A stretch of DNA of 64,000 nt from Nitrospirota bacterium (GTDB lineage Bacteria > Nitrospirota > Thermodesulfovibrionia > Thermodesulfovibrionales > UBA9159): NCBI GenBank assembly GCA_963699545.1, contig CAVOUE010000009.1, forward strand, positions 1-64,000. Reading direction: 5' to 3'. Every line of letters begins with the position of its first letter. The stretch's first letter is position 1. This document shows, piece by piece, positions 1 through 39,867 of this stretch. The notes beneath the pieces were generated by a model. The model had not been told where the DNA came from, ran no database searches, and worked only from the letters and a program-made list of their open reading frames with translations. The position numbers and the translations under genes were made by a program.

Positions 1-3000
1 TAGTCGTAGGCGACATTGAACAGGCGGGCAAGCTGGCAAAGCAGAGTCTGGATGAGAAGATCGACCCCATGACCACAACAGAAAAGGGTCTTATCCCGGC
101 TATGGCAATAGTCAGCGAAAAGTATGATAAAAAGGAGTACTATCTGCCCCAGATGCTTCAGCTCCGAGCTTCTACTTCTACCCTGAAGGCGAAGATGAAG
201 GTCGAATCAGTGGGCAGAGGCAAGGTGCTGATCGGCGTTGTCGAAGGCGATGTCCATGACATCGGGAAGAACCTCGTGAGGATAGTGCTGGCATAACCAG
301 TTCGTCTGCATCGACATGGACCATGTGCCCATTGAAGACTATCTCCAGAAGCGAGGAGAAGCCCGATTTTCTCGTTTTCGGACCCTCATGACGCCGACGA
401 TGCTCAGCATGAAACCGACTGTGGAGGGACTGGTTGAAAATAGGCCTCCGGGACAGGTTGTGGGCATTGGGCGGAGGACCTATCTCCTGGGAATTTTGCA
501 AGAAAATAAGCAGATTTCTATGAGAACAATGAAAAAGAAGCCCTGAAAATGACATCAGTAGTTGGCAAATAAGGAGGAGGTGAGAAACTATGTCTTCGAT
601 GACTCCGTTAGAAACGTGTTGTTGCAGCCCTCACATTTAAAAGTCGGACCCGGGTGCCTGTCGCTCTTTATTTCCAGAGTGCCGCCCAGCATGACTTTGT
701 GGACCTGGACTTACGTGGGAGGAGGGGCTAACCATCCGAGAAAGCTCTTTCAGTCAATAGAGAGGCAGTATACCGAGTATGGGGCTCATAACTTCTTCCT
801 GCCCGTCCATTCGGGTCGAGGGCGAGGTCTGGGCTCGAAGTTGAATTACATGCTCAAGGTGCCGGCGGCCAGTGCATGGGTGTCGTCAGCGAATGGGTTG
901 TCAAGACCCCTGCGGATCTTGCCAAACTTTCAGTCCCGACCCCACCAAGGCCGAAGGATGCCGGTCATCCTGGAGGTGATCAGGAGAACGAAGAAGAAAT
1001 ATCCCGATGACGTGTTCGTGAACGGACCTCCGGATACGGTCACCGATGTTCTCGAGGTCGTACGCGGCTCTATGTGGATATGATGAACAGTACCTTTTTA
1101 TCCATGGAACTGCTTGAGCTCTGCAACCGAGACGTCCATCGCTTTTGCCAAGGCCATGCTCGAAGCGGGGGCCGTTGCGATAGCAACTGTTGAGGGCGGG
1201 ATGGTTGATGAGGCGGTCAGCGGTTGATCAGTATGCCAAGTTTGTTGTCCCGTACCACAGAAAGATCTGTGACGCCTATAGGGGCCCCGTAGTATTACCA
1301 CCAGTGTGAAAACGCTACTCCATTCCTATTTCTCATTGTCAATGAAATCCAGCCGATAGCGGTGGCGTTTCATGACTCGTTTCTGACCTGAAATGGGCAA
1401 AGGAGAAGTACGGGAAAAAGGTGGCTATTGCAGGGAACGTCTCGCCGTGTCAAAGTCTGATGCCGTCCTCATGTTCGAACACCTGATGACGTAATGGCGG
1501 CAGCAAAGAAATGTCTGGATTATGGCGGGGTCTCCGCCATCAGCTGGATGCGAGATTCACCACGGCGTTCCGCCGTGAGCATAAAGGCCCTTGTGAAGGC
1601 GGCTGCCCTGTACGGAGTTTACATGGCCTTTAGTAATCGGGGTATTTGAAAGAAAAAGGGAGGAAAACGGGGAGTAACAAGTAAACCGGAGCTCAAGGCA
1701 TAGTCGCCTCATCTGAGGCGACTATACCACATTTTCAGAAAAATTAGGCCTTCTACTAATATGCTGCAAAAAAGATGGCAAAGGTTTCAGAAGAGGTAAG
1801 ATGTTTTGTTATCAGTGTGAAAGGGCAGAAAATGGACACGATAATGACTGGGGGCCGCGGAAAAACTCCTGAGGTATCGGACCTTCATGTCCTGCTTGTA
1901 TTCGCGGCAAGGGCTTTCGGTGCTTGCCCTTGAGGGGACAGGAAAACCCATGCGGACAACGTTAATTTGACCCGACTTTTTTCCGTTTCATGTATAAAAA
2001 GGGGCGTAGAGCTCAGGACCGGTCAAGCGGTGAAAGAACTTCAGGCTGCAGGCATAAAAAAACAGGGCCTGGGTCCGGGGCGAATTTCCGGCCCGAAAAA
2101 AGCCGTGAGGGGAGTCAAGCAGGCGCAAAAACTGGCACTTTTTCGAGTGATTCTTTGGACCCTGGCGTCCTGCCCTGGCAGGGTCAATTCCATCGGCCCG
2201 GCATTTTGGACCCTGACGTCCTGTCCCCTCCGCAGTATGACGCTGTTCGGCTTAAAGGGCGTGGCAGCGTACACCGGCCATGCCCGGGACCTGGGACAGA
2301 CCGATGACGCCATATACTCTTTTTTCCACGAAATGCTGGCGTCCATGACCAGGAAAGACCTCTCCCTCTATGCCTGGGTGGGGTTGGCCCTGAAATGCGG
2401 AGAGATAGACGCGCCATGGAGCTGCTCGACAAGGGCAACACTGGCACCTACGGTGACCCCGTCCTTACCACGGGCACCCCTTGGGCACAAGAAAGGAAGG
2501 CTATTCTCGTTTCCGGACATGACCTCAAGGAACTTGAAGAGATACTCAAGCAGAGCGAGGCAAAGGTATATATGCTCACACGCATGGAGAGATGCTCCCC
2601 ACCCACGGCTATGGCTTCTGCAAGAAATACGCTCACTTTTACGGCCATTACGGGGATGCCCAGAACAGGGAGTTTGAGCAGTTTCCCGGGGCTATCCCTC
2701 CGTCCACCAACTGCTTCCAGAAGCCCCTCGATTCCTACAGAGACAAAGTATTCACGACTGGCGTTGTGGGCAGCCCGACTTCCAGTATATCACAAGAGTG
2801 ATTTTGCCCCCCTCAGGGCCTTTTCCCTCCCCGGCTTTTCGAAAGACGAGGACCTGGGCTCGGGCGCTGACCGGCGCGGCAAGGAATGCGGTCCTCAGCG
2901 TTGCGGGCACGGTAATAGAGGCGGTAAAGAGCAAGAAGATACGGCATTTCTTTCTTGTTGCCGGCTGCGATAGTGAGACGGAAGGAGTTACTGACGCCGA

Positions 3001-3834
3001 TTTTGTCGAAAAAGTGCCCAAGGATGTGTTGCGCTGAATTCTCCATGCGGAAGTTCCGTTTCTTCGACAAGAAAATGGGCGATATCGGCGGTATCCCGAT
3101 GGTCCTGGAGCGCAACGACGCTTATTCTATCGAGATAGCGGTCTTGCAAAGGCCTTCAACGTGGGGGTAAACGATCTCCCCCTTTCCATGGTCCTCTCGT
3201 GGAACGAGCAGAAGGCCGTGGCCATCCTGCTTTCGCTTTTCCACTGGGGATCAAGGCATTCGCATGGCCTGTCATTGCCGGCCTTCATAAGTCCTGGGTG
3301 CTGGGAGTGCTTATGAAAAACTTCAACGTAATGGCCATTACCACACCGGAAGCATGAGACCTTAAGGCTATCCTGGGAGCCGGTGCATAGGGAACTCAGA
3401 ATGATTTGCGTGGTTGAAGCTCTTGCATGGAGGTGAGGCAGTGAACCGGAAAGAGATTGTCTTATCAGCTTTTGATTTTAAGGAAAACGAAAGACTTCCC
3501 GCAGCCATTTTCGGAGGTGGAGTATGGACTATCCGACCGGATATGGCGAGGAACCGGAAAAGCTTGTAAAAAACCCGAAAAGGATGAGCGAAATTGTAAT
3601 AGAAGTGGCAGAGAAAATCCGATCTACATAGTCTATGAGCTCCGGTCTGAACAATGTTCGCCCGGGAGCGCTCGGAGGCAGGGTCGTCTATCGGAAAGTA
3701 GGGGCACCTCGTTGCCAACCGCTTGTCAGCTCCGCTGATGACCTTCAAAAAACTTGATCTGGCGAGAATAGACAGCGATCCCGTCCTTAACAATATCAGG
3801 GAAGCCACGAGGATTGTTTTCGAGCGCATAGGCG
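1..3834. repeat. Degraded inverted copy (fold-back arm) of 3869-7863; probable long-read hairpin artefact
   Basis: Base 1 onward is the reverse complement of 7863 downward. The arms meet at a ~34 nt centre (3835-3868). The left arm holds indel-riddled fragments of the corrinoid protein, methyltransferase and hcp genes. Confidence 0.93.
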
Positions 3835-3849
3835 CGTCGAGATGCTGTT

Positions 3850-4262
3850 ACGCAATGCACATATCGTTCGCCTATGCGCTCCGAAACAATCCTCGTAGCT
3901 TCCCTGATATTGTTAAGGACGGGATCGCTGTCTATTCTCGCCAGATCAAGTTTTTTAAGGTCATCAGCGGAGCTGACAAGCGGTTCGAAATCAGGTGCCC
4001 CTACTTTCCGATAGACGACCCTGCCTCCGAGCGCTCCGGGCAAACAGTTGTTCAGACCGGAGCCTGCATAGACTATGTCCGATCGGATTTTCTCTGCCAC
4101 TTCTATTACAATTTCGCTCATCCTTTTCGGGTTTTTTACAAGCTTTTCCGGTTCCTCGCCATATCGGTGGTAAGTCCATACTCCACCTCCGAAAATGGCT
4201 GCGGGAAGTCTTTCGGTTTCCTTAAAATCAAAAGCTGATAAGACAATCTCTTTCCCGTTCAC
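3850..4262 (-). CDS. MtaA/CmuA (uroporphyrinogen decarboxylase-like) methyltransferase, N-terminal part, truncated at the fold-back centre
   Basis: GGAGGTG RBS before GTG at 4262. The sequence (KEIVLSAFDFKETERLPAAIFGGG...GALGG...LVSSADDLKKLD...IREATRIVSERIG) resembles a URO-D family N-terminal half. ORF-track residues after ~3835 are mirror-image sequence. Confidence 0.7.
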
Positions 4263-4312
4263 TGCCTCACCTCCATGCAAGAGCTTCAACCACGCAAATC
4301 ATTCTGAGTTCC

Positions 4313-6001
4313 CTATGCACCGGCTCCCAGGATAGCCTTAAGGTCTGCTTCCGGTGTGGTAATGGCCATTACGTTGAAGTTTTTCATAAGCACTCCCAGC
4401 ACCCCAGGACTTATGAAGGCCGGCAATGACGGGCCAATGCGGATCCCCTTGATCCCCAGGTGGAAAAGCGAAAGCAGGATGGCCACGGCCTTCTGCTCGT
4501 TCCACGAGAGGACCATGGAAAGGGGGAGATCGTTTACCCCCACGTTGAAGGCCTTTGCAAGAGCTACCGCTATCTCGATAGCAGAATAAGCGTCGTTGCA
4601 CTGGCCCACGTCCAGGAGCCTCGGGATACCGCCGATATCGCCCATTTTCTTGTCGAAGAAACGGAACTTGCCGCATGCGAGAGTCAGCACAACACAGTCC
4701 TTGGGCACTTTTTCGACAAAATCGGCGTAGTAACTCCTTCCCGTTGTTCCACTATCGCAGCCGGCAACAAGAAAGAAATGCCGTATCTTCTTGCTCTTTA
4801 CCGCCTCTATTACCGTGCCCGCAACGCTGAGGACCGCATTCCTTGCCGCGCCGGTCAGCACCGAGCCCAGGTCCTCGTCTTTCGAAAAGCCGGGGAGGGA
4901 AAGGGCCTTCTTTATGAGGGGGGCAAAATCACTCTTTGTGATATACTGCATGCCGGGGCTGCCCACAACGCCAGTCGTGAATACTTTGTCTCTGTAGGAA
5001 TCGAGGGGCTTCTGGAAGCAGTTGGTGGACAGGAGGATAGCCCCGGGAAACTGCTCAAACTCCCTGTTCTGGTTATGCCAGGCGGTCCCGTAATGGCCGT
5101 AAAAGTGAGCGTATTTCTTCAAGGCCGGATAGCCGTGGGTGGGGAGCATCTCTCCATGCGTGTAGACATATATACCCTTTCCCTCGCTCTGCTTGAGTAT
5201 CTCTTCAAGTTCCTTGAGGTCATGTCCGGAAACGAGAATAGCCTTTCCTTTCTTGTGCCCAAGGGGTACCGTGGTAAGGACGGGGTCACCGTAGGTGCCA
5301 GTGTTGCCCTTGTCGAGCAGCTCCATGGCGCGTATGTTTATCTCTCCGCATTTCAGGGCCAACCCCACCCAGGCATCAAGGGAGAGGTCTTTCCTGGTCA
5401 TGGACGCCAGCATTTCGTGGAAAAAAGAGTATATGGCGTCATCGGTCTGTCCCAGGGTCCGGGCATGGCCGGTGTACGCTGCCACGCCCTTTAAGCCGAA
5501 CAGCGTAGTACTCCGGAGGGACAGGACGTCAGGGTCCAAAATGCCGGGCCGATGGAATTGACCTTGCCAGGGCAGGACGCCAGGGTCCAAAGAATCACTC
5601 GAAAAGAGTCCCAGTTTTTGCGCCTGCTTGAGCATTCCCTCACGGCTTTTTTCGGGCCGGAAATTCGCCGGACCCTCCGCAGGGCCTGTTTTTATGCCTG
5701 CAGCCTGAAGTTCTTTCACCAGACCGTCCCTGAGCTCTACGCCCCTTTTTATACATGAAACAAAAAAGTCAGGGTCGAAATTGACGTTTGTCGCGGTCGA
5801 GAAAAGCGCATCCACCGTGTACTCATCGACTTTCCTGTCTATTACCCCGGCTTTCCTGCCCTCAAGGGCAAGCACCGAAAGCCCTTGCAGCAAATATACA
5901 AGCAGGTCCTGAAGGTCCGATACCTCAGGAGTTTTTCCGCAGGCCCCGGTCGTTGTGCATCCTGTTCCATTTTCTGCCCTTTCACACTGATAACAAAACA
6001 T
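4313..6001 (-). CDS. hcp: Hybrid cluster protein (hydroxylamine/NO reductase)
   Basis: MFCYQCE...GCTTTGACGK N-terminal cluster motif; SGHDL, THGEMLP, GQCNDAYS and SWNEQKAV motifs; RBS before ATG 6001. Confidence 0.96.
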   Translation of the reverse strand: MFCYQCERAENGTGCTTTGACGKTPEVSDLQDLLVYLLQGLSVLALEGRKAGVIDRKVDEYTVDALFSTATNVNFDPDFFVSCIKRGVELRDGLVKELQAAGIKTGPAEGPANFRPEKSREGMLKQAQKLGLFSSDSLDPGVLPWQGQFHRPGILDPDVLSLRSTTLFGLKGVAAYTGHARTLGQTDDAIYSFFHEMLASMTRKDLSLDAWVGLALKCGEINIRAMELLDKGNTGTYGDPVLTTVPLGHKKGKAILVSGHDLKELEEILKQSEGKGIYVYTHGEMLPTHGYPALKKYAHFYGHYGTAWHNQNREFEQFPGAILLSTNCFQKPLDSYRDKVFTTGVVGSPGMQYITKSDFAPLIKKALSLPGFSKDEDLGSVLTGAARNAVLSVAGTVIEAVKSKKIRHFFLVAGCDSGTTGRSYYADFVEKVPKDCVVLTLACGKFRFFDKKMGDIGGIPRLLDVGQCNDAYSAIEIAVALAKAFNVGVNDLPLSMVLSWNEQKAVAILLSLFHLGIKGIRIGPSLPAFISPGVLGVLMKNFNVMAITTPEADLKAILGAGA

Positions 6002-6077
6002 CTTACACCTCCTTCTCAAAACCTTTGCCATCTTTTTTGCAGCATATTAGTAGAAGGCCTAATTTTTCTGAAAATGT

Positions 6078-6109
6078 GGTATAGTCGCCTCAGATGAGGC
6101 GACTATACC
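6078..6109. terminator. Perfect 15-bp inverted repeat between the methyltransferase gene and hcp (terminator or stabilising hairpin)
   Basis: GGTATAGTCGCCTCA-GA-TGAGGCGACTATACC, followed on the minus strand by only a short T run (ACATTTT). Confidence 0.55.
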
Positions 6110-6179
6110 TTGAGCTCCGGTTTACTTGTTACTCCCCGTTTTCCTCCCTTTTTCTTTCAATGCCCCAATTACTAAAGGC

Positions 6180-7245
6180 TTACTTGTAAACTCCGTACAG
6201 GGCAGCCGCCTTCACAAGGGCCTTTATGTTCGCGGGCGGAACGCCGTGGTGAATCTCACATCCGGCTGATAACAGAAACCCCCCTCCCGGCATGCCGATA
6301 TCCAGACATTTCTTTGCTGCCGCCATTACGTCATCAGGTGTTCCGAACATGAGGACGGCATCAGACTTTGACACGGCGACGTTCCCTGCAATAGCCACCT
6401 TTTTCCCGTACTTCTCCTTTGCCCATTTCAGGTCAACCGAGTCATGAAACGCCACCGCTATCGGCTGGATTTCATTGACAATCAAATCCAGGAATGGAGT
6501 AGCGTTTTCACACTGGTGGTAAATGTACGGGGCCCCTATGGCGTCACGGATCTTTCTGTGGTACGGGACAACAAACTTGGCATACTGATCAACGCTGACC
6601 GCCTCATCAACCATCCCGCCCTCAACAGTTGCTATCGCAACGGCCCCCGCTTCGAGCATGGCCTTGGCAAAAGCGATGGACGTCTGGGTGCAGAGCTCAA
6701 GCAGTTCATGGATAAAAGAAGGATCTCTCATCATATCCACATAGAGCCGCGTATAGCGACCCTCGAGAACATCGGTGACCGTATCCGGAGGTCCGTTCAC
6801 GAACCCTACGATTGGCACATCGGGATATTTCTTCTTCAGTTCTCCTGATCACCTCCAGGATGACCGGCATCCTTCCGGCCTTGGTGGGGTCGGGGACTGA
6901 AAGTTTGGCAAGATCCGCAGGGGTCTTGACAACCCATTCGCTGACGACACCCATGCGCATACCGCCGCCGCACTTGAGCATGTAATTCAACTTCGAGCCC
7001 AGAGCCTCGCCCTCGACCCGAAAATCGACGGGCAGGAAGAAGTTATCAGCCCCATACTCGGTATACTGCCTCTCTATTGACTGAAAGAGCTTTCTCGGAT
7101 GGTTAAGCCCCTCCTCCCACGTATAGTCCAGGTCCACAAAGTCATGCTGGGCGGCACTCTGGAAATAAAGAGCGACAGGCACCCGGTCCGACTTTTTAAA
7201 TGTGAGGGCTGCAACAACACGTTCTAACGGAGTCATCGAAGACAT
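6180..7245 (-). CDS. MtaA/CmuA-family (URO-D fold) corrinoid methyltransferase; one frameshift near 6840, probably a sequencing error
   Basis: ORFs 6706-7272 and 6180-6818 join into one URO-D family protein (MTPLERVVAAL...VEGEALG...GRMPVILE...YHQCEN...LSAGCEI). The fold-back copy reads through the junction in frame (RRTKKKYPD). Confidence 0.88.
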
Positions 7246-7261
7246 AGTTCTCACCTCCTCC

Positions 7262-7900
7262 TTATTTGCCAACTACTGATGTTGCCCATTTCAGGGCTTC
7301 TTTTTCATTGTCTCCATAGAAATCTGCCTTTATTTTCTTGCAAAATTCCCAGGAGATAGGTCCTCCACCGATGCCCACCTTGACCTTGTCCCGGAGGCCT
7401 TCCTCAACCAGTCCCTCCACAGTCCGTTTCATGCTGAGCATCGTCGGCGTCATGAGGGTCGAAAGCATCAGAAAATCGGGCTTCTCCTCAGCTACCTTCT
7501 GGAGATAGTCTTCGATGGGCACATCGCGTCCCATGTCGATGCAGACAAAACCATTTGCCTCCAGCACTATCCTCACGAGGTTCTTCCCGATGTCATGGAC
7601 ATCGCCTTCGACAACGCCGATCAGCACCTTGCCTCTGCCCTTTGATTCGACCTTCATCTTCGCCTTCAGGATATTAAAGGCCTCATAAAAGGCTTCGGAG
7701 CTGAGAAGCATCTGGGGCAGATAGTACTCCTTTTTATCATACTTTTCGCTGACTATTGCCATAGCCGGGATAAGACCCTTTTCTGTTGTGGTCATGGGGT
7801 CGATCTTCTCATCCAGACTCTGCTTTGCCAGCTTGCCCGCCTGTTCAATGTCGCCTACGACTACGGCGTGGTTAAGTTCTTGGAAGATCTTTTCACTCAT
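7262..7900 (-). CDS. Corrinoid (cobalamin-binding) protein, MtaC/MtbC-like
   Basis: GDVHDIGKNLV B12-binding motif, N-terminal cap domain, SxL and GGG motifs. Confidence 0.95.
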   Translation of the reverse strand: MSEKIFQELNHAVVVGDIEQAGKLAKQSLDEKIDPMTTTEKGLIPAMAIVSEKYDKKEYYLPQMLLSSEAFYEAFNILKAKMKVESKGRGKVLIGVVEGDVHDIGKNLVRIVLEANGFVCIDMGRDVPIEDYLQKVAEEKPDFLMLSTLMTPTMLSMKRTVEGLVEEGLRDKVKVGIGGGPISWEFCKKIKADFYGDNEKEALKWATSVVGK

Positions 7901-7977
7901 TGTGTTCCACCTCCTTAGATATTATGTTTACCATTTACCAACTGCTCATGCTTAGTCTTTCTCTACGTTGTTACCTC

Positions 7978-8748
7978 CTATCTCTTTTCATTCATTAGGC
8001 TCTTGGCTCGGTCAAATGCCCGCTCCAGAATATCGAGCGTCCCCTTCGCCTCCTCTATATAAAAGTCGAAAGACGCGGCGAACTTCTCTGTTTCAGTGCG
8101 CAGCGCTTCACGATTCCCGATGCCTGTGTCTACCATAAGAGCCCTCTTATAATCTGCCTTCTTAAATATCCATTTGACGGTGGAGATATCCGGGCAGTGG
8201 AGTTCCTTAACCAGCAGTGTTTCCCAGTGCTTGAGCCAGCCAGGGGTCACAAACCATGTGCCCGCCTCTTGACGAACCTGATCCAGATACTTCTCGGTCC
8301 CTCCCAGCACCAGGCAAACGCAATCATCGATCGTACTCCCGTCCTGATTTTGGGGCATCACAACAGGACAATTTAAGCCGGCCAATTGTTCTTCGATATT
8401 GAGGAGCACATTGCCGCAAAGTCCATAACCCAGCACAAGGACGTCACTCTTCTCACTCAGAATCCTTGCCTGCTCTGTAACCCCCTCTCTCAGCAAGGAC
8501 TTGTCCATGTGAAGACCGACGCGGAGCGTCATGGCCAGGACTTCGAAAGAGACCTTCGGGTCCGGCAGAAAGTCAGTTACGTTCTTAACTGTTGTGAACC
8601 TGTCACCCATCAACTGGTGAAGGGCCGCAATTATGTCTGTCGCAGGATCGCTCTCAATGAAAGCGACTTTTTCGATATCTGGGTCATGGGAAAGGATATG
8701 TGCCATCTCATCTTCAAGGACTTCGCATATCAAAAGCCCAATCACCAT
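7978..8748 (-). CDS. DUF1638-like protein (corrinoid methyltransferase accessory)
   Basis: C-x-V-L-E-D-E N-terminus; GLH, GYGLCG, DDCV..LGG and WFVTPGW motifs; lies next to the activase. Confidence 0.75.
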   Translation of the reverse strand: MVIGLLICEVLEDEMAHILSHDPDIEKVAFIESDPATDIIAALHQLMGDRFTTVKNVTDFLPDPKVSFEVLAMTLRVGLHMDKSLLREGVTEQARILSEKSDVLVLGYGLCGNVLLNIEEQLAGLNCPVVMPQNQDGSTIDDCVCLVLGGTEKYLDQVRQEAGTWFVTPGWLKHWETLLVKELHCPDISTVKWIFKKADYKRALMVDTGIGNREALRTETEKFAASFDFYIEEAKGTLDILERAFDRAKSLMNEKR

Positions 8749-8749
8749 A

Positions 8750-10384
8750 TCAATCCTCGGTAATCCTCATGGATTCGAGTAGGAAACCGTTAGAGCACTC
8801 TGCTTCACAACGCCGGCAGGCGGTGCCGTTACAGAGGTCGGAACGGATCAGTATCCTCTCTTTCCCATCCACTGTTTCGATATGTGCAGCGGTCTCCGGA
8901 CATTCATTGAGACATTTTCGACAGGCATCACCCAGGCACCCGGCGGGGAAATCAAGAGAGAGCTCGGTGCCCACGCTGTCCACGACAGTCAGGCCCATAG
9001 GACCGATTTCGATAATATCTCTCTTTGCGATGCGAATCAACTCCGGCGACGGGTGCGGCTGAGGAAAACCCTGAATGCCGTAGAGGGCAAGCATGCCGTT
9101 CATCATATGCGCCGGCATTCCCTCATCCCAGTAAGCCAGTTCACAGACATAGGCATTCTTAAAAACCTTCGAGTCGGCAAACATAATGTGCTTGGCGGTG
9201 ATCGTATCGGCCACTTTCTGGAGCATGTCCAGGAGCTCAGGACGTCTGACAATTTCAGTGGCGAGACACAGGCTTGTGTTCCCGGCCTGTATAATCCTGC
9301 CGGCTGAATTGGGAATAAGACCGACTTTCCGGGCCTTTAACGGGTCTACGTAAGTGCCTGATGCTCCTGTCATGTAAACAGCTTCCAGTTTCGGCAGCTT
9401 TATGCCGACCTCTTCGACGAGTGTCATATGCCCGGCTCGAATGGCGCCGATGGCCTTCCCCGCCTCTCTTACATCCTTTTCCGTCAGGAAGATTCCTTCG
9501 GTCATGTGCAGTTTTCCGTCGGCGGTGCTGATCTTTGGCGGGCCTACCAATCCTGCATCAATCCCTTCGGCGATCGCGGCAACAACACCCGTACCGGTAA
9601 TGCCTTTCGGCAGGTAGTTCGGGTCTCCCTCCAGAACGATCACCCCGTCTTTTGCACGGATGCTCGAACTGGAACGTGAGATGAGATCTGAATCGAGCAC
9701 ACGAATGTCCCAGACTCCGTCGGCAGAGATTATATCTGCAATGGCGCCCGGCTGAGCCAACATGCCGCAGGACACATGCTGTCCCTCCATGGCAGGTCCT
9801 GCCGCGGCCGAGCCTGTCAATATCTCGCCGCCTACCTTGATGGCCATTTCCGCGTTGGTACCATAATCCGTGACAATGGCCACCTCATCCTTATCAAGGA
9901 GGCCGGTAATATACATCATCGCTAAAGCATCTGCCCCTATCTCATGCCTGACTGCCGGCGGCACAAACAGCTCCGCTTTGTCGGATAGTTCTAACCCCAC
10001 ATCTGCGGCTCGAATGACACGCGCCGGCCGTTGGACAGGCTCAGTGATTCCCATCTTCTTGAGTCCCCGTTTACCGGCAAAGGCCAAATCTCTAATTTCC
10101 ATCCTTTGAAAGAGGGAAAGCTGGATAGGATTTCCGCAAATCGATACACGTCCCACTTCTTTCAGATCGATTGGAAGTGCGCGGATGACTTTGTGCACCG
10201 CATTGAGAATCAACTTGTGAGTAAGGTCATATCCCAGTTCAAGACAGAAGTGGAGATGGTCCATGACATTTGCACCCGGCAAAGGATGGCGGGTCGATAT
10301 AGCAGTCGCGATAACCCTGCCGTCTTCTCCAATGGCTTGTGCTCTAAAGCCGCTCGTCCCTAAATCTAAAGATAAGCCCTTCAT
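8750..10384 (-). CDS. ATP-dependent corrinoid reductive activase, RamA type (ASKHA fold plus C-terminal ferredoxin)
   Basis: DLGTSGFRAQ, HPLPGANVMDHLHF, HEIGADALAM, DYGTNAEM and GSAAAGPA motifs; C-terminal Cys clusters CLGDACRKC..ECPE and CNGTACRRCE. Confidence 0.92.
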   Translation of the reverse strand: MKGLSLDLGTSGFRAQAIGEDGRVIATAISTRHPLPGANVMDHLHFCLELGYDLTHKLILNAVHKVIRALPIDLKEVGRVSICGNPIQLSLFQRMEIRDLAFAGKRGLKKMGITEPVQRPARVIRAADVGLELSDKAELFVPPAVRHEIGADALAMMYITGLLDKDEVAIVTDYGTNAEMAIKVGGEILTGSAAAGPAMEGQHVSCGMLAQPGAIADIISADGVWDIRVLDSDLISRSSSSIRAKDGVIVLEGDPNYLPKGITGTGVVAAIAEGIDAGLVGPPKISTADGKLHMTEGIFLTEKDVREAGKAIGAIRAGHMTLVEEVGIKLPKLEAVYMTGASGTYVDPLKARKVGLIPNSAGRIIQAGNTSLCLATEIVRRPELLDMLQKVADTITAKHIMFADSKVFKNAYVCELAYWDEGMPAHMMNGMLALYGIQGFPQPHPSPELIRIAKRDIIEIGPMGLTVVDSVGTELSLDFPAGCLGDACRKCLNECPETAAHIETVDGKERILIRSDLCNGTACRRCEAECSNGFLLESMRITED

Positions 10385-10387
10385 TTC

Positions 10388-11437
10388 TTAAACCCACACC
10401 TTCTTAAATCCATATTTCTTACCGGTTTCAACCATAGCCTGCAGGTTAATTGTAGGTGTCTGGGGGGGAATGCCACAGCATGTGGTGAGGAGGTCGGTTC
10501 CCTTATTGATAATCTCCATAACAGCTTTTTCAACATCTTCAGGCCCGTCAAACAGTAAGACCCCATTCACATTAACGTTTCCGCAGACGGCGGTTTTTTC
10601 TCCAACAGCGGCTTTGGCATCAGCCATATCTACCAGAGAATCAATGGAGATGCCCGGCGCCACCTCCGCCATCCTCGTCAGAATCAGATCATTTTTCCCG
10701 CATATATGAAGAATTGTCGGCACTGAAATGTTTTCGGTGATGCTCCGGGAGAATGGCTTGGCAAACTCGTCAAATTGTTTCGGGCTGATCAAATCGCAGC
10801 TGGCCGTGGCATCGACGATCACGACAACATCTGCCCCTGCCTCGACCTGGGCTTGAGCATACTTAACGCAGACCTTTTGAGCTTTCTTAATAAGCTCTAT
10901 GGCAGCTGCCGGCTTCCTCATCAATTCGCGCATAAAAGGATCCACACCCCTGACCTGACCCGCCACCATGAAAGGGCCCACTACCATCGAGATGACCGGT
11001 ATGGTATCAGGAACTCTCTTTTTGAGGAGCTTAATCGCCTTGAGGACCACCGGCATTCTGCCGTCTTTATAAGGGTCCGGATCCTTCACCCTGCTGAAGT
11101 CGCCCGTTTCCGATATGGCAGGCTCCTTTACAGGGGGTTGAATATCCAATCCCTTGTTGCGGCCTGAGTGATACTCGAGCACACATCCCATAGCTTCGGC
11201 CTCTATATTGATATCAAAGGGAACGCGGACGCTCTCAAAGCCAATAACCCGATGAGCCTCATAAGACAGGGTAGCCATAAGTTCAGAGTCGGAGTGTACT
11301 TCCGGCCAATAAGCACCACATGATTTCATCAATTCTATCGTCCCCGTATGTAAAGGCTGGGCTACAGGTATCCGGTCTACTGGCTGACGGGCCAAGGTGG
11401 CAAGAAGTCTTTCTTTTGGTGACATGGTCTCTTTCAT
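10388..11437 (-). CDS. MtaA/MtbA/MtsA-like methylcobamide methyltransferase (MT2, URO-D fold)
   Basis: VRVPFD..EAEAMG, GRMPVV, Zn-binding LHICG and a C-terminal Cys (TCCGI). Confidence 0.92.
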   Translation of the reverse strand: MKETMSPKERLLATLARQPVDRIPVAQPLHTGTIELMKSCGAYWPEVHSDSELMATLSYEAHRVIGFESVRVPFDINIEAEAMGCVLEYHSGRNKGLDIQPPVKEPAISETGDFSRVKDPDPYKDGRMPVVLKAIKLLKKRVPDTIPVISMVVGPFMVAGQVRGVDPFMRELMRKPAAAIELIKKAQKVCVKYAQAQVEAGADVVVIVDATASCDLISPKQFDEFAKPFSRSITENISVPTILHICGKNDLILTRMAEVAPGISIDSLVDMADAKAAVGEKTAVCGNVNVNGVLLFDGPEDVEKAVMEIINKGTDLLTTCCGIPPQTPTINLQAMVETGKKYGFKKVWV

Positions 11438-11547
11438 GATTCCTCCCTTTCAGGGTTCCGGCTCCTCCCCATCAGAAGATCGAAGTCGCGTTATGGAACC
11501 CCCTTATGTTTTTGTCTAGGATTCTTGATTGATCAGCAAAAAGATGA

Positions 11548-13206
11548 TCATCCTTTTTCCTCTGTCCTCCTTTTGTTGAAATTAGGCTCAACCGCTTCTG
11601 AAGGCATACCCGGCATGAGATTGCTATTTTTGGTCAGGGCACAAAGATAGCCTGCACCCGTAAAAGGAACGCAATCAACTATCGGGAGAGTGTATTTCCC
11701 GGGGACATTTTTTATCCGGGAATCGTGGGAAAGGGAAAGATGGGTTTTTGCGATACAGAGTCCATAATTTTGACGCTTTGAACTGAGAGCTTCCCGTCTT
11801 TCTATCCCTGTCAAGGTTTCAGATGCTTGAGAAGATATTGTTATCCCCTCTGCACCGTATATTTTATCGGCAACTTTAGAAATCTTTTCCTCCGCAGAAA
11901 AGGTATCATCATAAAGCTTACTGAAGTTAAAAGGCCTTTGGGCGGCTTCCGTTACCGCTTCAGCCAGTTCAATCGCCCCCTTGCTACCCTTCTGCCAACC
12001 CTCGTGGGCAACGGCGAAATCGGCGCCCAGGTCAAGTGCAGTTTTTTTAATCGTCCTTATCTCTTCATCGTGATCAAAGGAAAACCTATTGACGGCAACG
12101 ACCAGCGGAAAACCGAAGATCTTGACGTTGTGGATATGGCTTTCAAGGTTTTTCATTCCTGACATCAGGGCGGCATCATTCCTTCTTGCCCACTCGCTTT
12201 CTTCAGACACACGACCGGTGGCCAAAGTGCTGAGGCCATGCATCTTGAGGGCCCTGGCCGTTACTACGAGGACAACGGCATCGGGCAGCCTCTGGAGGAC
12301 GGGGGCCTTGATGGCCAGGAATTTCTCAAAACCCGTATCCGTACCCCCCCCGCCTTCGGTGACAACATAGTCGGCCATCCTCATCGCGACTTCGTCCGCC
12401 AGGACGGAACAGTTCCCGTGGCTGATGTTGGAAAAAGGACCGCAGTGGAGGATGACAGGGGTGTTTTCCGAAGAAATGACAAGATTCGGCAGAAGGGCCT
12501 TCCTGAGAATCTTTATCAGATCCGGTTCTATTTTGATATCCGCCATCAAGACAGGATTGTCATATTCGTCAATGCCTATTGTTATTTTTGAAATCCTATC
12601 CCGTAACTCTTCATGATTTCTGGAAAGTGAGAGTATTGCCATTAGCTCTGATGCCTGGGTCATGATGAAGCCGCTTCTTCGCTTCGTCTCTTCCTTGTCA
12701 GTCCCTATGAGAACACTCCTCAGGGACCTGTCACAGAGGTCGATAGCCCTGTTCCAGAAAACCCTTTCTCTATTGAGCCCAAGCGGATTCCCCCAAAAGA
12801 AGAGGTTATCTACATGGGCTGCGACGAGATTGTGGGCCAGGGTGACCGCGTGAGTGTCCCCGGTGCAGTGAAAATCGATCTCCTCTTGAGGAATAAGACT
12901 CGCCTTTCCTCCTCCCGAGCCGCCTCCCTTGCGGGCGAAGTAGAGACCGCTCGAGGGCTGCCTCAGGGAGGCTATCGAGCTTTTCCCTCCCCGGTTAAGT
13001 GCCATGCTCAGCGATATTGCGGTAACCGTCTTCCCTTCTCCCCTGCAAGTCGGAGTCATTGCGGTGACAAAGATGTATTTGCCGCCGGGCCTTCTCGGCA
13101 GTCTTTCAGATACTTCCAGTGAAATCTTGGCTACGGACTTCCCGTAGGGCTCTATCTCCTTTTTCTGAAAACCAAATCTCGCAGAGATGGGAAGAATAGA
13201 TCTCAT
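11548..13206 (-). CDS. fhs: Formate-tetrahydrofolate ligase, divergent copy
   Basis: TPT..GEGKT P-loop; LRQPS, GPFSNI, RALKMHG and [10 protein letters not shown] motifs. Confidence 0.88.
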   Translation of the reverse strand: MRSILPISARFGFQKKEIEPYGKSVAKISLEVSERLPRRPGGKYIFVTAMTPTCRGEGKTVTAISLSMALNRGGKSSIASLRQPSSGLYFARKGGGSGGGKASLIPQEEIDFHCTGDTHAVTLAHNLVAAHVDNLFFWGNPLGLNRERVFWNRAIDLCDRSLRSVLIGTDKEETKRRSGFIMTQASELMAILSLSRNHEELRDRISKITIGIDEYDNPVLMADIKIEPDLIKILRKALLPNLVISSENTPVILHCGPFSNISHGNCSVLADEVAMRMADYVVTEGGGGTDTGFEKFLAIKAPVLQRLPDAVVLVVTARALKMHGLSTLATGRVSEESEWARRNDAALMSGMKNLESHIHNVKIFGFPLVVAVNRFSFDHDEEIRTIKKTALDLGADFAVAHEGWQKGSKGAIELAEAVTEAAQRPFNFSKLYDDTFSAEEKISKVADKIYGAEGITISSQASETLTGIERREALSSKRQNYGLCIAKTHLSLSHDSRIKNVPGKYTLPIVDCVPFTGAGYLCALTKNSNLMPGMPSEAVEPNFNKRRTEEKG

Positions 13207-14243
13207 CAGTCCGTGATACTCCCGTTCGCCTTTACTGTTTCGACCATGACCCGCAGGTTTTCCGCCGGAATTTCAGGCCACAAGTCACAGCCGGGCCATA
13301 CCGCGCTTACCCCGTCTTTGATGGATCTCATAACCTCTTTCTCGACATCTTCCGGACTTCCCAGGCAGAGTATCTGGTAGGTATCCAGATTTCCAAAAAT
13401 GAGCGCTTCCTTTCCGAGAAGCTGCCTCGCCCTGGCCACGTCGGTCTTCTTCTCTATACTTATTGCGTCGACTTTTGTATTCGCCATATCTTCCACGATC
13501 GGGTTTGTATTACCACAGATGTGGAGGACCCTAGGCATGCTTATTCCCGCCATAACCTTGTCCAGATGGGGTTTCACCAGGGACCGAAACATCTTTGGAC
13601 TCACGACATCGGCACCGGCCCCCATCTCCCTTATGGTCATGTAGTCGGCCCCCGCACTTTTGTAAATGTTGGCTACAGCAATGATGAGCTCGGCAAATAA
13701 GTCAAGGACCTTATTCACGGCCTCAGGATTCTTAAAGGACTGTTTCAAAAGCCCTTCCAGGTCCATCACCTGGCCTGCCAAAAGAAAAGGTCCCAGGACA
13801 TAGGTCCCCACCGCTACTTCGCCTCCGATTTCTTTCTTAAGTATCCTTATCGCCTCGGTGACAACGGGGATCCTTCCTTTTTCTGCAAGGTTCTCAGGCA
13901 GCTTTATGTCCGCGGGCCCATTGATAACCTTGTCCTTTACCGTTGGATAAAGGATTCCTTCCCTGTGGGAGTAAGTGTTCATCGTGCAGCCCAGGACTTC
14001 CGCCTCTACGGCGATATCGTAAGGGACAACGGCACATTCAAGGCCGAAGAGCCGGTAAGTAGAGGAAGAAGTGGACGCCATCAGCTTCGGGTCCGCATGG
14101 ACTTCTGAAAAAGGGGTATTGCTTTCTTTCAGCCCGTGAACCGTAACATTTCCCATACCGCTGAAGACCGGAATCCTGTCTATCTTTTCCTTCCTGAATA
14201 GTCTCAGCACCCTTTCCCTGGGACTGTATTTCTCTCCTGTCAT
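13206..14243 (-). CDS. MtaA/CmuA-family methyltransferase (URO-D fold)
   Basis: SPRERVL, VEAEVLG, GRIPVV, LHICG and PGCD motifs; AGGAGG RBS before ATG 14243. Confidence 0.92.
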   Translation of the reverse strand: MTGEKYSPRERVLRLFRKEKIDRIPVFSGMGNVTVHGLKESNTPFSEVHADPKLMASTSSSTYRLFGLECAVVPYDIAVEAEVLGCTMNTYSHREGILYPTVKDKVINGPADIKLPENLAEKGRIPVVTEAIRILKKEIGGEVAVGTYVLGPFLLAGQVMDLEGLLKQSFKNPEAVNKVLDLFAELIIAVANIYKSAGADYMTIREMGAGADVVSPKMFRSLVKPHLDKVMAGISMPRVLHICGNTNPIVEDMANTKVDAISIEKKTDVARARQLLGKEALIFGNLDTYQILCLGSPEDVEKEVMRSIKDGVSAVWPGCDLWPEIPAENLRVMVETVKANGSITD

Positions 14244-14293
14244 TTGTTCCTCCTTTGTATAGAGGATCCTCTTATTAATTGCCATCGTCTTTC

Positions 14294-15100
14294 CTAAATT
14301 CTTCCTTCTTTGTGCGCTTTCAAAAAGGTAGCGCAGTCCTGATCTTTTCCAAGCATTGTTTCCGCCGCTATGATGGTGGCCATGAGTTCCTTGTCCAAGG
14401 GATTAAGGAGAACCGCGTCGAGGCATGAGGCCATCAGCATAGCCTGGAAGGTCCTCGTCGCGAGAGAACGCTTCGGGAGATTCCAGGTGCTGGCGCTGAC
14501 ATTCACCATAGCCTTAACCTGCGGGAGTTCCTTTTTTATAAGCCTGAGCGACTCGAGGGAGATCAGAGACTGCGTATGCCAGTTCGGCACACTTACCGGC
14601 AGGCACATGAAATCAATATAGACCAGGGAGAGGTCTATTCCATAGCTGTCTATTGCATCGACAAGTTTCTTGGCTATCTCAAGCCTCCCTTCCGCGTGAT
14701 CGGGCATCCCCCCCTTCTCGTCGATTGTCACACCGATGACTTTGCAGCCCATCTCTTTTACAAAGGGCAGTATGCCGGCAATCCTTGGTTTCTGAAGAGT
14801 GATAGAGTTGGCAATGCAATTCTTCACATTCCTACATCTTTTGAGACCGGCTTCTATTGCCTTTGGATGTATGCTATCCACAGCAAGCGGAACATCTGTC
14901 ACTTCCTGGACGATATCAACGGCCCATTCAAGCCTCCGGAGATTGTTTTCAGGCTTCAGGCCGGCATTAATGTCGATTATGTGAGCTCCCGCAGCGACCT
15001 GCTTCGCAGCCTCCTCCTGGATTACCTTGGCATCCTTCTCCTCATATGCCTTCTCGATATACTTGATCGATGTGTTGATCCTTTCGCCTATTACTTCCAT
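14294..15100 (-). CDS. Methyltetrahydrofolate:corrinoid methyltransferase (AcsE-like pterin-binding domain)
   Basis: VIGERIN, GAHIIDINAG, PLAVDS and ANSIT motifs of the pterin-binding/DHPS-fold methyltransferases. Confidence 0.88.
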   Translation of the reverse strand: MEVIGERINTSIKYIEKAYEEKDAKVIQEEAAKQVAAGAHIIDINAGLKPENNLRRLEWAVDIVQEVTDVPLAVDSIHPKAIEAGLKRCRNVKNCIANSITLQKPRIAGILPFVKEMGCKVIGVTIDEKGGMPDHAEGRLEIAKKLVDAIDSYGIDLSLVYIDFMCLPVSVPNWHTQSLISLESLRLIKKELPQVKAMVNVSASTWNLPKRSLATRTFQAMLMASCLDAVLLNPLDKELMATIIAAETMLGKDQDCATFLKAHKEGRI

Positions 15101-15126
15101 CTTTCCTCCCACTTCAAAATTGATTA

Positions 15127-15993
15127 TTAAAACCCCGCCTTGTCCAGAACCAACGGAACTTTGTCCTCCCAGTGAATGGTATAAATGTGAACCCCCTGGG
15201 AGAGGTTCCGCAAATCCTTGATCAGACGAGCCGCTACCTCGATACTTGTATTCACGGGGTTGGTGCTTTTTTCAAATTCATCAATGATGAACTTCGGAAT
15301 ATTAATCCCGGGAACATTTTTGTTCATAAAATGGGCCATCTTTGCAGATTTTAATAGAAAGACACCGGCAAGAACCGGAACATGTAAATGCCTTGTTTTT
15401 TCCACAAAGGATGTAAAGTCCTCGATGTCGAAAACAGGTTGAGTCTGGAAAAAATCCGCTCCTGCCGCAACCTTTTTTTCCATCTTGATGAGTTGAGGTT
15501 CCAGTGGAGTAGAGGAAGGGTTCACGGCTGCCCCCAGGCAAAATGACGGAGAGCCTTTGAGCCGCTTGCCGGACATGTCAGCGCCGCACTCCAGCCCTCT
15601 GGCCACTTTCAAGAGCTGAACCGATTCAATATCGAAGACTCCTTTTGCACCGGGGTGGTCCCCGAGGGATTGATGGTCTCCGGAAAGGACAAGAACATTT
15701 TCTATCCCGAGTGCTGAGGCGCCTAACAGGTCGGATTGCAGGGCCAGCCGGTTCCTGTCTCGGCATACCATCTGGAGTATCGGTTCAAGTCCCTCCTCTT
15801 TTATCAAGTAGGATGCGGCAAGCGAACTGAGGCTCATTACCGCACTCTGATTATCTGCCGCATTCACACCGTCCACCCTCCCCCGCAAGGGGTGCAATAT
15901 TTTCAACTCTGCCCTTATATCCGTTCCCTTCGGCGGGAGAAAATCCGTCGTAATGACAAATCTTCCTGATTTCAAAACGTCCTTCAGTGCCAT
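15127..15993 (-). CDS. metF: Methylenetetrahydrofolate reductase (second copy)
   Basis: PPKG, CRDRNRLALQS, GD and FFQTQPVFD motifs. Confidence 0.9.
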   Translation of the reverse strand: MALKDVLKSGRFVITTDFLPPKGTDIRAELKILHPLRGRVDGVNAADNQSAVMSLSSLAASYLIKEEGLEPILQMVCRDRNRLALQSDLLGASALGIENVLVLSGDHQSLGDHPGAKGVFDIESVQLLKVARGLECGADMSGKRLKGSPSFCLGAAVNPSSTPLEPQLIKMEKKVAAGADFFQTQPVFDIEDFTSFVEKTRHLHVPVLAGVFLLKSAKMAHFMNKNVPGINIPKFIIDEFEKSTNPVNTSIEVAARLIKDLRNLSQGVHIYTIHWEDKVPLVLDKAGF

Positions 15994-15994
15994 A

Positions 15995-16897
15995 CTACAC
16001 TCTGGCTCCTGCTGTCCGGCTTTCTCTTCCGGCAATTTCTGCTTCGTCCAGGATGTAGGGAATCCGGTCGTGCCACGGCGTGGTCATCATAATATGGACC
16101 CCCGAACAGATATGTGAGAGTGCCCTTACGATCCTGACGGTTATTTCAATGCTTCTCCTCTCGGCGTCTCCTTTTTCGAGCTCCTGTATGATCGGTTCGG
16201 GAACGAGAACGCCTGGGATGTTCTTATTCATGAAGCGCGCAGAGGCCGCGGATTTCAGGATGAACACCCCGGCCAGAACCGGGATATCAAGGAAGGCCAC
16301 ACTTTCCAGGAACCTGGCATAACTATCGACGTCGAAGATGGGCTGAGTCTGCAGAAATTCCGCTCCTGCCTCAGCCTTTAGACGTGCCTTTTTGATCTCT
16401 TCCAGCGGTTTTACCGCACCAGGGTCAAGGGCGGCTCCGAGACAAAAGTTCGGTACGCCATCAAGTCGTTTTCCGCCCATGTCAAAACCCTTTTCAAGAT
16501 TCCTCGCTACCGCCAGGAGTTGAACAGTATCAAGGTCAAAGACGGATTTGGTGTCTGGATTGTCCGAGCCTGTCGCCTCGTCGCCTCTCAGACACAGTAT
16601 GTTCCTTACTCCTAAGGCATAGGCGCTCAGCATCTCTGATTGAAGGCTGATCCTGTTTCTGTCACGGCAGGTGATCTGCATGATGGGCTCTATCCCCATT
16701 TCTTTGACCTTCACGGACACCGCGAGGGAGCCCATCCTCATATTCGCTCCGGGCATATCGGTGACATTTATCGCATCAACCCTTCCCTTCAAAAGTTCAA
16801 TACCCTTCAGACTCTTGTAGACGGCCGTGCCTTTAGGCGGAATTACGTCCGATGTTACAACAAACTCTCCTGATCTCAGCTTTTCTCTGAATGTCAT
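15995..16897 (-). CDS. metF: Methylenetetrahydrofolate reductase (first copy)
   Basis: PPKG, TCRDRNRISLQS, LRGD and LQTQPIFD motifs. Confidence 0.9.
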   Translation of the reverse strand: MTFREKLRSGEFVVTSDVIPPKGTAVYKSLKGIELLKGRVDAINVTDMPGANMRMGSLAVSVKVKEMGIEPIMQITCRDRNRISLQSEMLSAYALGVRNILCLRGDEATGSDNPDTKSVFDLDTVQLLAVARNLEKGFDMGGKRLDGVPNFCLGAALDPGAVKPLEEIKKARLKAEAGAEFLQTQPIFDVDSYARFLESVAFLDIPVLAGVFILKSAASARFMNKNIPGVLVPEPIIQELEKGDAERRSIEITVRIVRALSHICSGVHIMMTTPWHDRIPYILDEAEIAGRESRTAGARV

Positions 16898-16908
16898 CTT
16901 TCAACCTC

Positions 16909-17781: not shown

Positions 17782-17797
17782 TTTCTTTCTCCGTCTC

Positions 17798-39865: not shown

Positions 39866-39867
39866 CC

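Follow-up and report, generated by a model that had tools for sequence, protein, structure and literature searches.

Substrate-side methyltransferases of corrinoid-dependent systems (functional class MT1; the acceptor-side class is MT2) are in several cases members of the UroD superfamily, among them CmuA, MecE, MecC, CdmB and the O-demethylase MT1s (accessible sections of PMC13222342). The mec cassette (MecA-J) combines several URO-D methyltransferases, one corrinoid protein, an activase, a protein of unknown function and MecF, a tetrahydrofolate (THF)-binding MT2 of the MtrH family, with a two-component pair and a transporter, as described in the accessible parts of 10.1101/2021.08.30.458270 and PMC9768040. 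In Methanosarcina, the MT2-family fold stands on the substrate side and works with a cognate corrinoid protein in MtpA/MtpC (methylmercaptopropionate), MtsA/MtsB and MtsD/F/H (methyl sulphides); MtpA, in what is accessible of its description, is an MT2-family protein that serves as a substrate-specific MT1 and needs a separate MT2. Here we compare with these systems an operon at the start of a contig from a Nitrospirota bacterium (GenBank assembly GCA_963699545.1, contig CAVOUE010000009.1, here C9). The window, that is the whole stretch analysed, comprises the first 64,000 nucleotides of this contig; the source genome (G000) has 3.04 Mb and is 87% complete. The operon holds a corrinoid methyltransferase system and the genes of a bacterial microcompartment (BMC). 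We estimate a probability of roughly 55% that one of its URO-D-fold enzymes, MT-C, acts as MT1 and another, MT-B, as the thiol-side MT2, with RamA and DUF1638 in activation, and that the bacteria add AcsE, MetF, a PanB paralogue and a shell for the one-carbon (C1) unit. The methyl donor and the reaction of the PanB paralogue are guesses.

The five genes of the core and the two further URO-D-fold methyltransferases are as follows.

6180-7245, minus strand: MT-C, candidate substrate-specific MT1 (motif HQC[EQ]...H...CE[VI]HH; frameshift at 6840)
7262-7900, minus strand: cognate corrinoid protein (PF02607 and PF02310; DVHDIG motif)
7978-8748, minus strand: DUF1638 protein, probable activation accessory (PF07796)
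8750-10384, minus strand: RamA-type ATP-dependent corrinoid reductive activase (TIGR04270, 691.9 bits, cut-off 500)
10388-11437, minus strand: MT-B, MtaA-like putative methyl-corrinoid:thiol (probably coenzyme M) methyltransferase (PRK06252, 346.1 bits, cut-off 244)
13206-14243, minus strand: MT-A, second MT2-type enzyme (PRK06252, 284.2 bits)
about 3870-4262, minus strand: MT-D, URO-D-fold methyltransferase, cut so that only the 5' part is present, accessory (PF01208)

The initial annotation of this stretch had listed four URO-D genes, one corrinoid protein, an AcsE-like methyltransferase, an activase and DUF1638. The open reading frame (ORF) list and family scans bear out this inventory, with the activase of RamA type and all genes on the minus strand. 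The zinc motifs are also as it read them: HICG...PGCD in MT-A, HICG...TCCG in MT-B and HQCE...AGCE, with the variant HQC, in MT-C. Its account of the interval holds for the genes it named; hcp and a divergent fhs went unmentioned, and the operon continues to ~22.9 kb, with a gene for a GAF protein upstream. A search with RamA of 185,579 species genomes gave 80 loci. In two of them, L002 and L003, both labelled Nitrospirota, the order of genes is conserved, with identities of 70-95%. The intact L002 closes its cluster with MT-D, which encodes 341 residues there (HMCG...PACD, 70% identical). In L003 further genes follow downstream, namely DUF2284, a second corrinoid gene, one resembling MetV and another MT-B. 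On this ground we rejected a classical MT1 past the contig end, and the absence of one claimed by the initial annotation applies to the locus and beyond it. Profiles for MtaB, MttB and MtmB and an MtbB-like query found no match in the 87%-complete source genome.

Judged by phylogeny and family models, the four URO-D enzymes are not equivalent, and MT-A and MT-B belong with the thiol-methylating MT2 enzymes. As references the trees included CmuA and CmuC (plasmid pCMU01), MtaA and MtbA (identity confirmed with NCBIfam), and MtsA-like, MtpA-like and MtsD/F/H-like sequences labelled by gene architecture and not from named records; the deep branches have weak support and no root in time, and we read no transfer donor or direction from them. 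MT-A and MT-B group with MtaA/MtbA/MtsA/MtpA (FastTree 0.887; SH-aLRT 87.3) and pass TIGR01463 (cut-off 235.4) and PRK06252, with scores of 264.6 and 284.2 for MT-A and 308 and 346.1 for MT-B. The L002 orthologues of MT-C (164.5; 178.6) and MT-D (128; 121.6) stay below both cut-offs. The nearest proteins to MT-B (42%) are archaeal MT2s that stand, in the arrangement found here too, beside a corrinoid gene and a divergent URO-D methyltransferase. MT-B is 36-40% identical to MtaA/MtbA; one tree makes it sister to an MtsA-like protein (SH-aLRT 91.4), a pairing missing from the FastTree tree. The initial annotation had held that its reading would fall if the methyltransferases clustered with ordinary MT2 enzymes and an MT1 lay further along; MT-A and MT-B do group with MT2s, and there is no downstream MT1. 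With the MtaA/MtbA systems the locus shares these two family models and a RamA that passes TIGR04270. It differs in that the MtaA/MtbA equivalog models (NF040654, at least 400; NF041608, at least 600) are not reached even by MT-B, the best scorer (311.5 and 281.6), whereas the controls L166 and L165 pass, and in that the host is bacterial, has no match for mcr and offers no MtaB, MttB, MtbB or MtmB partner.

MT-C forms a clade of its own (FastTree 1.0; SH-aLRT 99.9) whose neighbouring groups are uncharacterised. It has 53 relatives at E <= 1e-40; a profile built from 29 gave five matches at E <= 4e-66 among 1.84 billion representatives, the next standing at 9e-52. The 46 MT-C loci comprise 30 from metagenomes, 13 from genomes, and L002-L004; many contigs are short. 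MT-C is loosely tied to MtsD/F/H-like fusions of corrinoid domain and methyltransferase (SH-aLRT 91.8; FastTree 0.87) at 22-23% identity, is 25% identical to an MtsA-like and 23% to an MtpA-like protein, and falls inside none of the MtsA, MtsD/F/H and MtpA clades. The predicted model (pLDDT 92.3) has MtaA (4AY7) as its top fold match. Invariant in 29 of 29 sequences are, among others, H243, C245, H267, C329, E330, H332 and H333; a His occupies the column of MtaA Glu263 (the Glu of SVEE), and the motif ends in CE[VI]HH. This residue set is absent from every MT2, Mts, Mtp and Cmu sequence used as a reference. The corrinoid gene lies immediately upstream of MT-C in 39 of the 41 loci with at least 500 nt of upstream sequence (five shorter loci were excluded), and the corrinoid proteins of MT-C loci are one clade (FastTree 0.995). 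Since MT-C is an isolated clade with a co-evolving corrinoid gene directly upstream, it is likely the substrate-specific MT1, an assignment drawn from gene order and co-evolution. Like MtpA, MT-C seems to need a separate MT2; it differs from the Mtp and Mts systems in its low identity (22-25%), its distinct motif, the lack of a fusion and the lack of a conserved permease. The corrinoid protein is 47-49% identical to the two closest fusion/MtpC-like domains, 38-42% to the others and 28-30% to the CmuA domain, its grouping with fusion/MtpC-like domains being weak (support 0.30-0.71). The ESM Atlas returned generic names alone, and cluster look-ups no characterised protein.

Gene co-occurrence in the 46 loci, scored by tblastn with identity thresholds, separates a common core from rarer partners: MT-B-like genes occur in 29, RamA in 24 and DUF1638 in 22, as against five each for the PanB paralogue, AcsE and MT-A and two for MT-D. 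The module of MT-C, corrinoid protein, MT-B, RamA and DUF1638 recurs in Methanomassiliicoccales. RamA, whose C-terminal cysteines are invariant in 16 aligned rows, has its closest non-cluster relatives (48-56%) mainly in Methanomassiliicoccales-labelled genomes, and the corrinoid and MT-C genes each form clades that mix bacteria and archaea. from mcrB/mcrA in L110 and downstream of a cdh-type acetyl-CoA synthase operon in L091, and SsuA-type sulphonate-binding proteins adjoin the module in L090 and L092.

The distribution of the cluster is patchy. The cluster RamA was found in none of 60 relatives of the source genome, and MT-C in none of 400 other genomes of the host's own phylum, in one of 201 genomes of the class of genome G063, and in none of 401 genomes of the phylum of a Desulfomonilaceae-labelled genome (a search without a positive control). 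The phylum of an Archaeoglobi-labelled genome, which includes Methanosarcina, gave no MT-C orthologue in 251 genomes, the top matches being generic MT2s. The PanB paralogue occurs in one of 68 genomes of the family of G061, and a plasmid search with MT-B gave remote matches alone, mostly HemE. In four public runs the window matches at ~95-99% over ~4400-11050 (hcp to MT-B) and mostly at 86-90% over ~11700-18300 (fhs to PduT), which suggests that the core module may have been exchanged recently or moves separately from the fhs-to-PduT part. In L095 (8515-9969) DUF1638 is fused to a corrinoid protein, a hint that DUF1638 acts on the latter. If the MT1 assignment of MT-C is right, a compact family with a clear motif would link Nitrospirota of wetlands and sediments with Thermoleophilia and Methanomassiliicoccales; knowledge of its substrate would give methanogenesis a further methyl donor and show how sulphate-reducer-type bacteria compete for it.

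The other genes of the operon and the regulator gene upstream of it are as follows.

4313-6001, minus strand: hybrid cluster protein (Hcp), accessory (NF003658, 752.6 bits, cut-off 367)
11548-13206, minus strand: divergent formate-THF ligase (fhs) paralogue, accessory (PF01268; below the NCBIfam cut-offs)
14294-15100, minus strand: AcsE-like putative corrinoid:THF methyltransferase (PF00809; PRK07535, 256.4 bits, cut-off 259)
15127-15993 and 15995-16897, minus strand: two MetF-family methylene-THF reductase paralogues (PF02219 twice)
16909-17781, minus strand: PanB paralogue with a rebuilt active site (G44S, D84C, K112E, P141R, V179S in E. coli numbering)
17798-18355, minus strand: PduT-like tandem shell protein (PF00936 twice; TIGR02526 below cut-off)
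18377-19710, minus strand: PduS/RnfC-like flavo-FeS protein, in pieces here (intact with 442 residues in L002 and L003)
19747-21336, minus strand: acylating aldehyde dehydrogenase (ALDH) of EutE/PduP type (PRK15398, 629.7 bits, cut-off 403)
21351-21671, minus strand: shell protein, BMC-P
21702-22064, minus strand: shell protein, BMC-H
22179-22937, minus strand: shell protein, CcmP-like BMC-T
24199-26457, minus strand: GAF-domain putative regulator (PF13185)

BMC-H, BMC-P, BMC-T and an acylating ALDH thus stand in one locus, as in the gene set of catabolic BMCs (EUT/PDU, and the MIC types of Sutter et al. 2021, whose core is likewise incomplete), with which the locus also shares PduS/PduT and the extension of the ALDH. 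It differs from them in its candidate signature enzymes, the PanB paralogue and the corrinoid methyltransferase system; the compartment is predicted from gene content. The BMC-domain genes of the locus are the only ones in G000 and in G061, G062 and G063 (4 of 4 genomes). The ALDH, 53% identical to the Thermoleophilia copy, has an N-terminal extension of ~85 residues with the motif FDNNIPC (the PRK15398 match begins at residue 84), which by sequence is a possible encapsulation peptide. We did not find the combination of microcompartment, PanB paralogue and corrinoid methyltransferases in the 2021 catalogue: in their accessible form, the main text of Sutter et al. 2021 has no instance of methyltransferase, Nitrospir, pantoate or corrinoid, and in its seven supplements a methyltransferase is named once, for the unrelated BUF2, and six relevant Pfam numbers not at all. 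Literature listings gave no description of this locus, the subscription literature being mostly outside their reach.

The PanB paralogue has the ketopantoate hydroxymethyltransferase fold (TM-score 0.75-0.80 over the query), passes TIGR00222 and keeps D45, E114, H136, E181 and D217, but departs from the canonical active-site set. Among 127 aligned PanB sequences Cys84 occurs in 35, all 35 of which have Glu112 and Ser44 and form one clade (FastTree 0.989), further marked by P141R/K and a C-terminal extension. We take D84 of PanB to be a Mg ligand and K112 the anchor of the substrate carboxylate; replacement of both would mean that substrate or metal has changed, and Glu112 and Arg141 may have been swapped into the roles of D84 and K112. 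A canonical PanB is encoded elsewhere in the source genome, on contig C5. Thirteen further PanB-like proteins (P0085-P0087, P0090, P0093, P0094, P0098, P0105, P0134, P0142, P0147, P0148 and P0158; one Spirochaetota-labelled) have Glu112 with another residue (Thr/Ser/Asn/Lys) at 84.

We propose a one-carbon system of two layers, in which the chemistry of RamA, MT-B, AcsE, MetF and the ALDH follows family knowledge. In the first, the mobile five-gene corrinoid module, RamA, probably aided by DUF1638, would reduce the corrinoid protein to Co(I), MT-C would move a methyl group from a small, probably uncharged CH3-X onto the cobalt, and MT-B would hand it to a thiol, in archaea to coenzyme M (CoM), which feeds Mcr, and in bacteria to CoM or a thiol like it. 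In the second, bacterial layer, the methyl group would reach THF through the AcsE-like enzyme, directly or via the methyl-thiol and MT-A, and the MetF pair would oxidise methyl-THF to methylene-THF. The PanB paralogue may then shuttle a formaldehyde-level unit between THF and a non-canonical carbonyl acceptor within the microcompartment, where the ALDH would convert an aldehyde to an acyl-CoA. The source genome encodes DsrA and acetyl-CoA synthase/carbon monoxide dehydrogenase, which would be available for oxidising the C1 unit.

CoM is likely the carrier in the archaeal loci and a plausible one in the bacterial loci. Cysteate synthase occurs in 24 of 41 related genomes. The source genome has two operons, on contigs C3 (862-878 kb; L119) and C1 (14-31 kb), with cysteate synthase, ComDE, an SsuA-type ABC transporter, RACo, a corrinoid protein, paralogues of MT-A and MT-D and an MtrH-like methyltransferase; MT-A is 54-55% identical to its paralogues on C3 and C1.

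Several observations weigh against the proposed scheme. MMP16/ComF or COG1900a performs the last step of CoM synthesis, as described in the accessible part of the literature; neither was found in G000, G002 or G061-G063, and ComDE was not found in G062 and G063, which leaves CoM no more than a candidate for the bacterial thiol. Nor does an operon with an AcsE-like enzyme clearly require a thiol intermediate. A phosphotransacylase, a kinase and an alcohol dehydrogenase are lacking from the locus (Pfam scan of the locus; the remaining genome was not searched). Of the candidate cargo enzymes, the ALDH alone has a clear extension. Shell or ALDH genes occur in 3 of the 46 MT-C loci and the PanB paralogue in five, counts that short contigs limit. 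MT-C and MT-D show no sign of direction, and methylation of X, in detoxification or biosynthesis, is possible. Finally, FolD was not found in G000. It is present in G061, G062, G063 and G001, and we therefore rejected the idea that the shell substitutes for FolD; incompleteness of the genome is the likelier cause. The FolD of a genus-mate of the source organism is 91% identical to that of G061 and 86% to that of G062, a kinship by which the host belongs to the Nitrospirota.

As claimed by the initial annotation, a URO-D-fold enzyme most likely acts directly on the substrate. Its argument that the fold and the missing O-demethylase MT1 narrow the donor to halides or thiols is weaker than it appeared, O-demethylase MT1s being themselves of the UroD superfamily. 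Of the two donors it offered, the methylated thiol is plausible. A methyl thioether (dimethyl sulphide, methanethiol or another small R-S-CH3) is our best single guess, at a little under even odds, with MT-C working like MtpA and MT-B making methyl-CoM; in one version the bacterial shell may process the demethylated R-SH co-product and not the C1 unit. This reading is a special case of the two-layer scheme. The loose grouping of MT-C with MtsD/F/H-like fusions, the nearness of the corrinoid protein to fusion/MtpC-like domains and the position of MT-B beside an MtsA-like protein in one tree point this way, as does the lack of a conserved permease in 13 archaeal loci (by inspection). Yet MT-C is just 22-25% identical to the fusions and to the MtsA-like and MtpA-like proteins, the corrinoid grouping is weak, the MT-B pairing vanishes from the FastTree tree, the Mts and Mtp labels follow gene architecture and not named records, and the phylum that holds Methanosarcina gave no MT-C orthologue. 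The residue set of MT-C, unmatched by any reference, might instead mark a different zinc or substrate site for another donor, such as methylated arsenic or selenium or an uncharged O- or N-methyl compound, a possibility we take seriously although the odds are against it; all such other donors together weigh about as much as the thioether. O-demethylase MT1s are of the same superfamily, and a preprint, in its accessible part, takes genes for methylotrophic methyltransferases as a sign of anaerobic arsenic demethylation; against this, in the loci inspected we noticed no genes for arsenic resistance or the catabolism of aromatics next to the module, and the CdmB/O-demethylase branch is remote, with the zinc motifs retained here. 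A halomethane, with a URO-D enzyme dechlorinating CH3Cl or CH2Cl2 and formaldehyde from dichloromethane explaining shell, PanB and ALDH, we regard as unlikely. It would suit the mec-like architecture (several URO-D enzymes with a single corrinoid protein, an activase and a functionally unassigned protein), the UroD-superfamily membership of CmuA, MecE, MecC and CdmB, and the fact that methyl-reducing archaea could use CH3Cl without a permease. With CmuA/CmuB of Methylorubrum extorquens CM4 and CdmBCA of Acetobacterium dehalogenans the locus shares the logic of a UroD-superfamily MT1, a corrinoid protein and a THF-dependent MT2. However, MT-A to MT-D (L002 orthologues) are 23-24% identical to CmuA and unfused, C9 has no CmuB match, and CdmB, a zinc-free protein, reaches E 5.5e-5 with MT-C and is unlisted for MT-A, MT-B and MT-D.

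In gene inventory, the mec likeness extends no further. The THF enzyme of the locus is AcsE-like and scores 18.9 bits with the MtrH-family model, whereas MecF is of the MtrH family; a RamA-type activase and a GAF regulator are present, and a Pfam scan of 25 ORFs found no MecA/D pair, MtrH-type MecF, MecJ transporter or chloride channel. MecG is presumably a DUF1638 protein. The term DUF1638 is lacking from PMC10344839. The accessible part of 10.1101/2021.08.30.458270 reports no homologues above 35% beyond a few Dehalobacter strains, MecJ excepted. The locus adds shell, PanB paralogue, ALDH, MetF and Fhs, and its core is common to methanogens. Methanomassiliicoccales lack a C1 pathway between CO2 and methyl-CoM (accessible part of the literature), so methylene-level carbon would be catabolically useless to them; as these archaea keep the module, in one locus beside mcr, dichloromethane is disfavoured, and its entry at the methylene level, offered by the initial annotation as the reason for shell, PanB and ALDH, is disfavoured on the same point. 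We rate dichloromethane as highly improbable and a methyl halide as a long shot, with chloromethane possible; cassettes rich in URO-D genes should not be taken as markers of dichloromethane use. The same genome also has a better halomethane candidate on contig C10. That locus (~71.5-78.4 kb; L122) encodes a RACo-type activase, a CmuB/MtrH-like methyltransferase (31% to CmuB), a corrinoid protein, a frameshifted URO-D methyltransferase sister to CmuA (31%; SH-aLRT 89.6), a divergent HTH+MEDS regulator (DcmR-type sensor) and a ClC channel. The shell/PanB/ALDH part and the methyltransferase part could also be mere neighbours on a mobile island, serving separate pathways. The module stands without shell genes in every archaeal locus and in the cdh-linked loci, and the two parts differ in their match to the four public runs. 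Against this, the genes from bmcT to MT-C lie on a single strand with gaps of at most 120 nt, and in Thermoleophilia (L004) the order is shuffled but two BMC-T genes, GAF, a shell gene, ALDH, PduT, MT-B, RamA, DUF1638, the corrinoid gene, MT-C, the PanB paralogue and AcsE are all together, PanB following MT-C. Three pairs of PanB-paralogue and MT-C proteins share longest-contig values (24472, 15798 and 3397), which is suggestive only. We consider separate pathways distinctly unlikely.

Returning to the two-layer scheme with MT-C as MT1, the system resembles Mtp/Mts or mec in logic and, by the tests run, appears to be a member of none; we see in it a variant of catabolic microcompartments as well as of corrinoid methyltransferase systems, and two of its enzyme clades, MT-C and the PanB paralogue, are uncharacterised. 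The bacterial version would add a type of microcompartment fed by corrinoid methyl transfer, and new formaldehyde-level chemistry on a PanB fold would be of interest for C1 biotechnology. More tentatively, and on balance doubtfully, this could be a one-carbon organelle of a new kind, in which the corrinoid system of methyl-reducing archaea, an unrecognised environmental donor, CoM or a similar thiol as carrier in a bacterium without methanogenesis, and a Cys-armed PanB-fold enzyme in a compartment handle formaldehyde-level carbon. The PanB-fold enzyme would then release such carbon to be oxidised to formyl-CoA, or attach it to an aldehyde and so lengthen a carbon chain, and the MT-C clade would mark an overlooked methanogenic substrate.

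The beginning of the window needs one correction.

1-3860, no strand: fold-back assembly artefact, an inverted, error-rich, non-genomic copy of ~3860-7863

In self-blastn, window 1-~3860 matches ~3860-7863 in inverted orientation, with numerous gaps and an identity of 91.5-92.5%. The pattern is present at 1 of the 26 contig ends of the genome, and these bases are a long-read fold-back at the contig start. It cuts MT-D, so that nothing past this gene can be read in the contig. The reading frame of MT-C is split by a single extra base at 6840, which is missing from a 1265-base public contig (nine differences) and from a contig of a second run. The PduS-like gene is broken in this assembly only, and base 19368 is missing from a related public contig. 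We rejected true pseudogenes for both, since orthologues are intact and near-identical public contigs lack the extra bases; the frameshifts are read errors. Frameshifts affect many genes of this error-prone assembly.

From bmcT through MT-D there are 19 co-oriented minus-strand genes with intergenic gaps of at most 178 nt. Rfam gave no match within the window, and a promoter and terminator scan was uninformative, with 16 and 20 sites where shuffled sequence gave 15.0 and 20.7. The GAF protein is also found beside the cluster in G061 and G062 (82-83%) and in G063 (29%). The hcp gene occurs in 2 of the 46 MT-C loci and is missing from L003. The two MetF paralogues are 50% identical to one another, and the AcsE-like enzyme is 31% identical to the other AcsE of the genome (contig C4). 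L002 is presumably Ca. Nitrobium versatile. The accessible part of PMC8906906, on that organism, makes no mention of a methyltransferase, corrinoid or microcompartment.

A second MT-B copy (~86%) lies a few genes downstream in L003 (18258-19307), L087 (8861-9910) and L089 (12252-13301), preceded in L003 and L087 by a second corrinoid gene and a MetV-like gene. In L004, two copies of a transposase-like ORF with a shared N-terminus (4139-5308 and 14363-15532; function assigned by eye) flank the shell-to-MT-C block. The Methanosarcina-like genome G1046 (L178, L180, L181, L187-L193) carries repeated cassettes of a corrinoid gene, a divergent URO-D methyltransferase and an MT2 of 'PLQT' type, which together make up a family of MT1 systems without assignment. 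On contig C4 (38370-42087), a URO-D methyltransferase with HNCG groups as sister of the MtsD/F/H-like fusions (SH-aLRT 96.3). Its gene stands a short way upstream of one for a divergent DsrA-like protein (316.7 bits, below cut-off), a possible link to methyl-sulphur compounds. In the window itself, 15 kb from the cluster, positions 38090-44359 hold a NuoF-like flavoprotein, pieces of a molybdopterin (formate-dehydrogenase-like) enzyme and the housekeeping Fhs (42596-44359), to which the Fhs of the locus is 36% identical.

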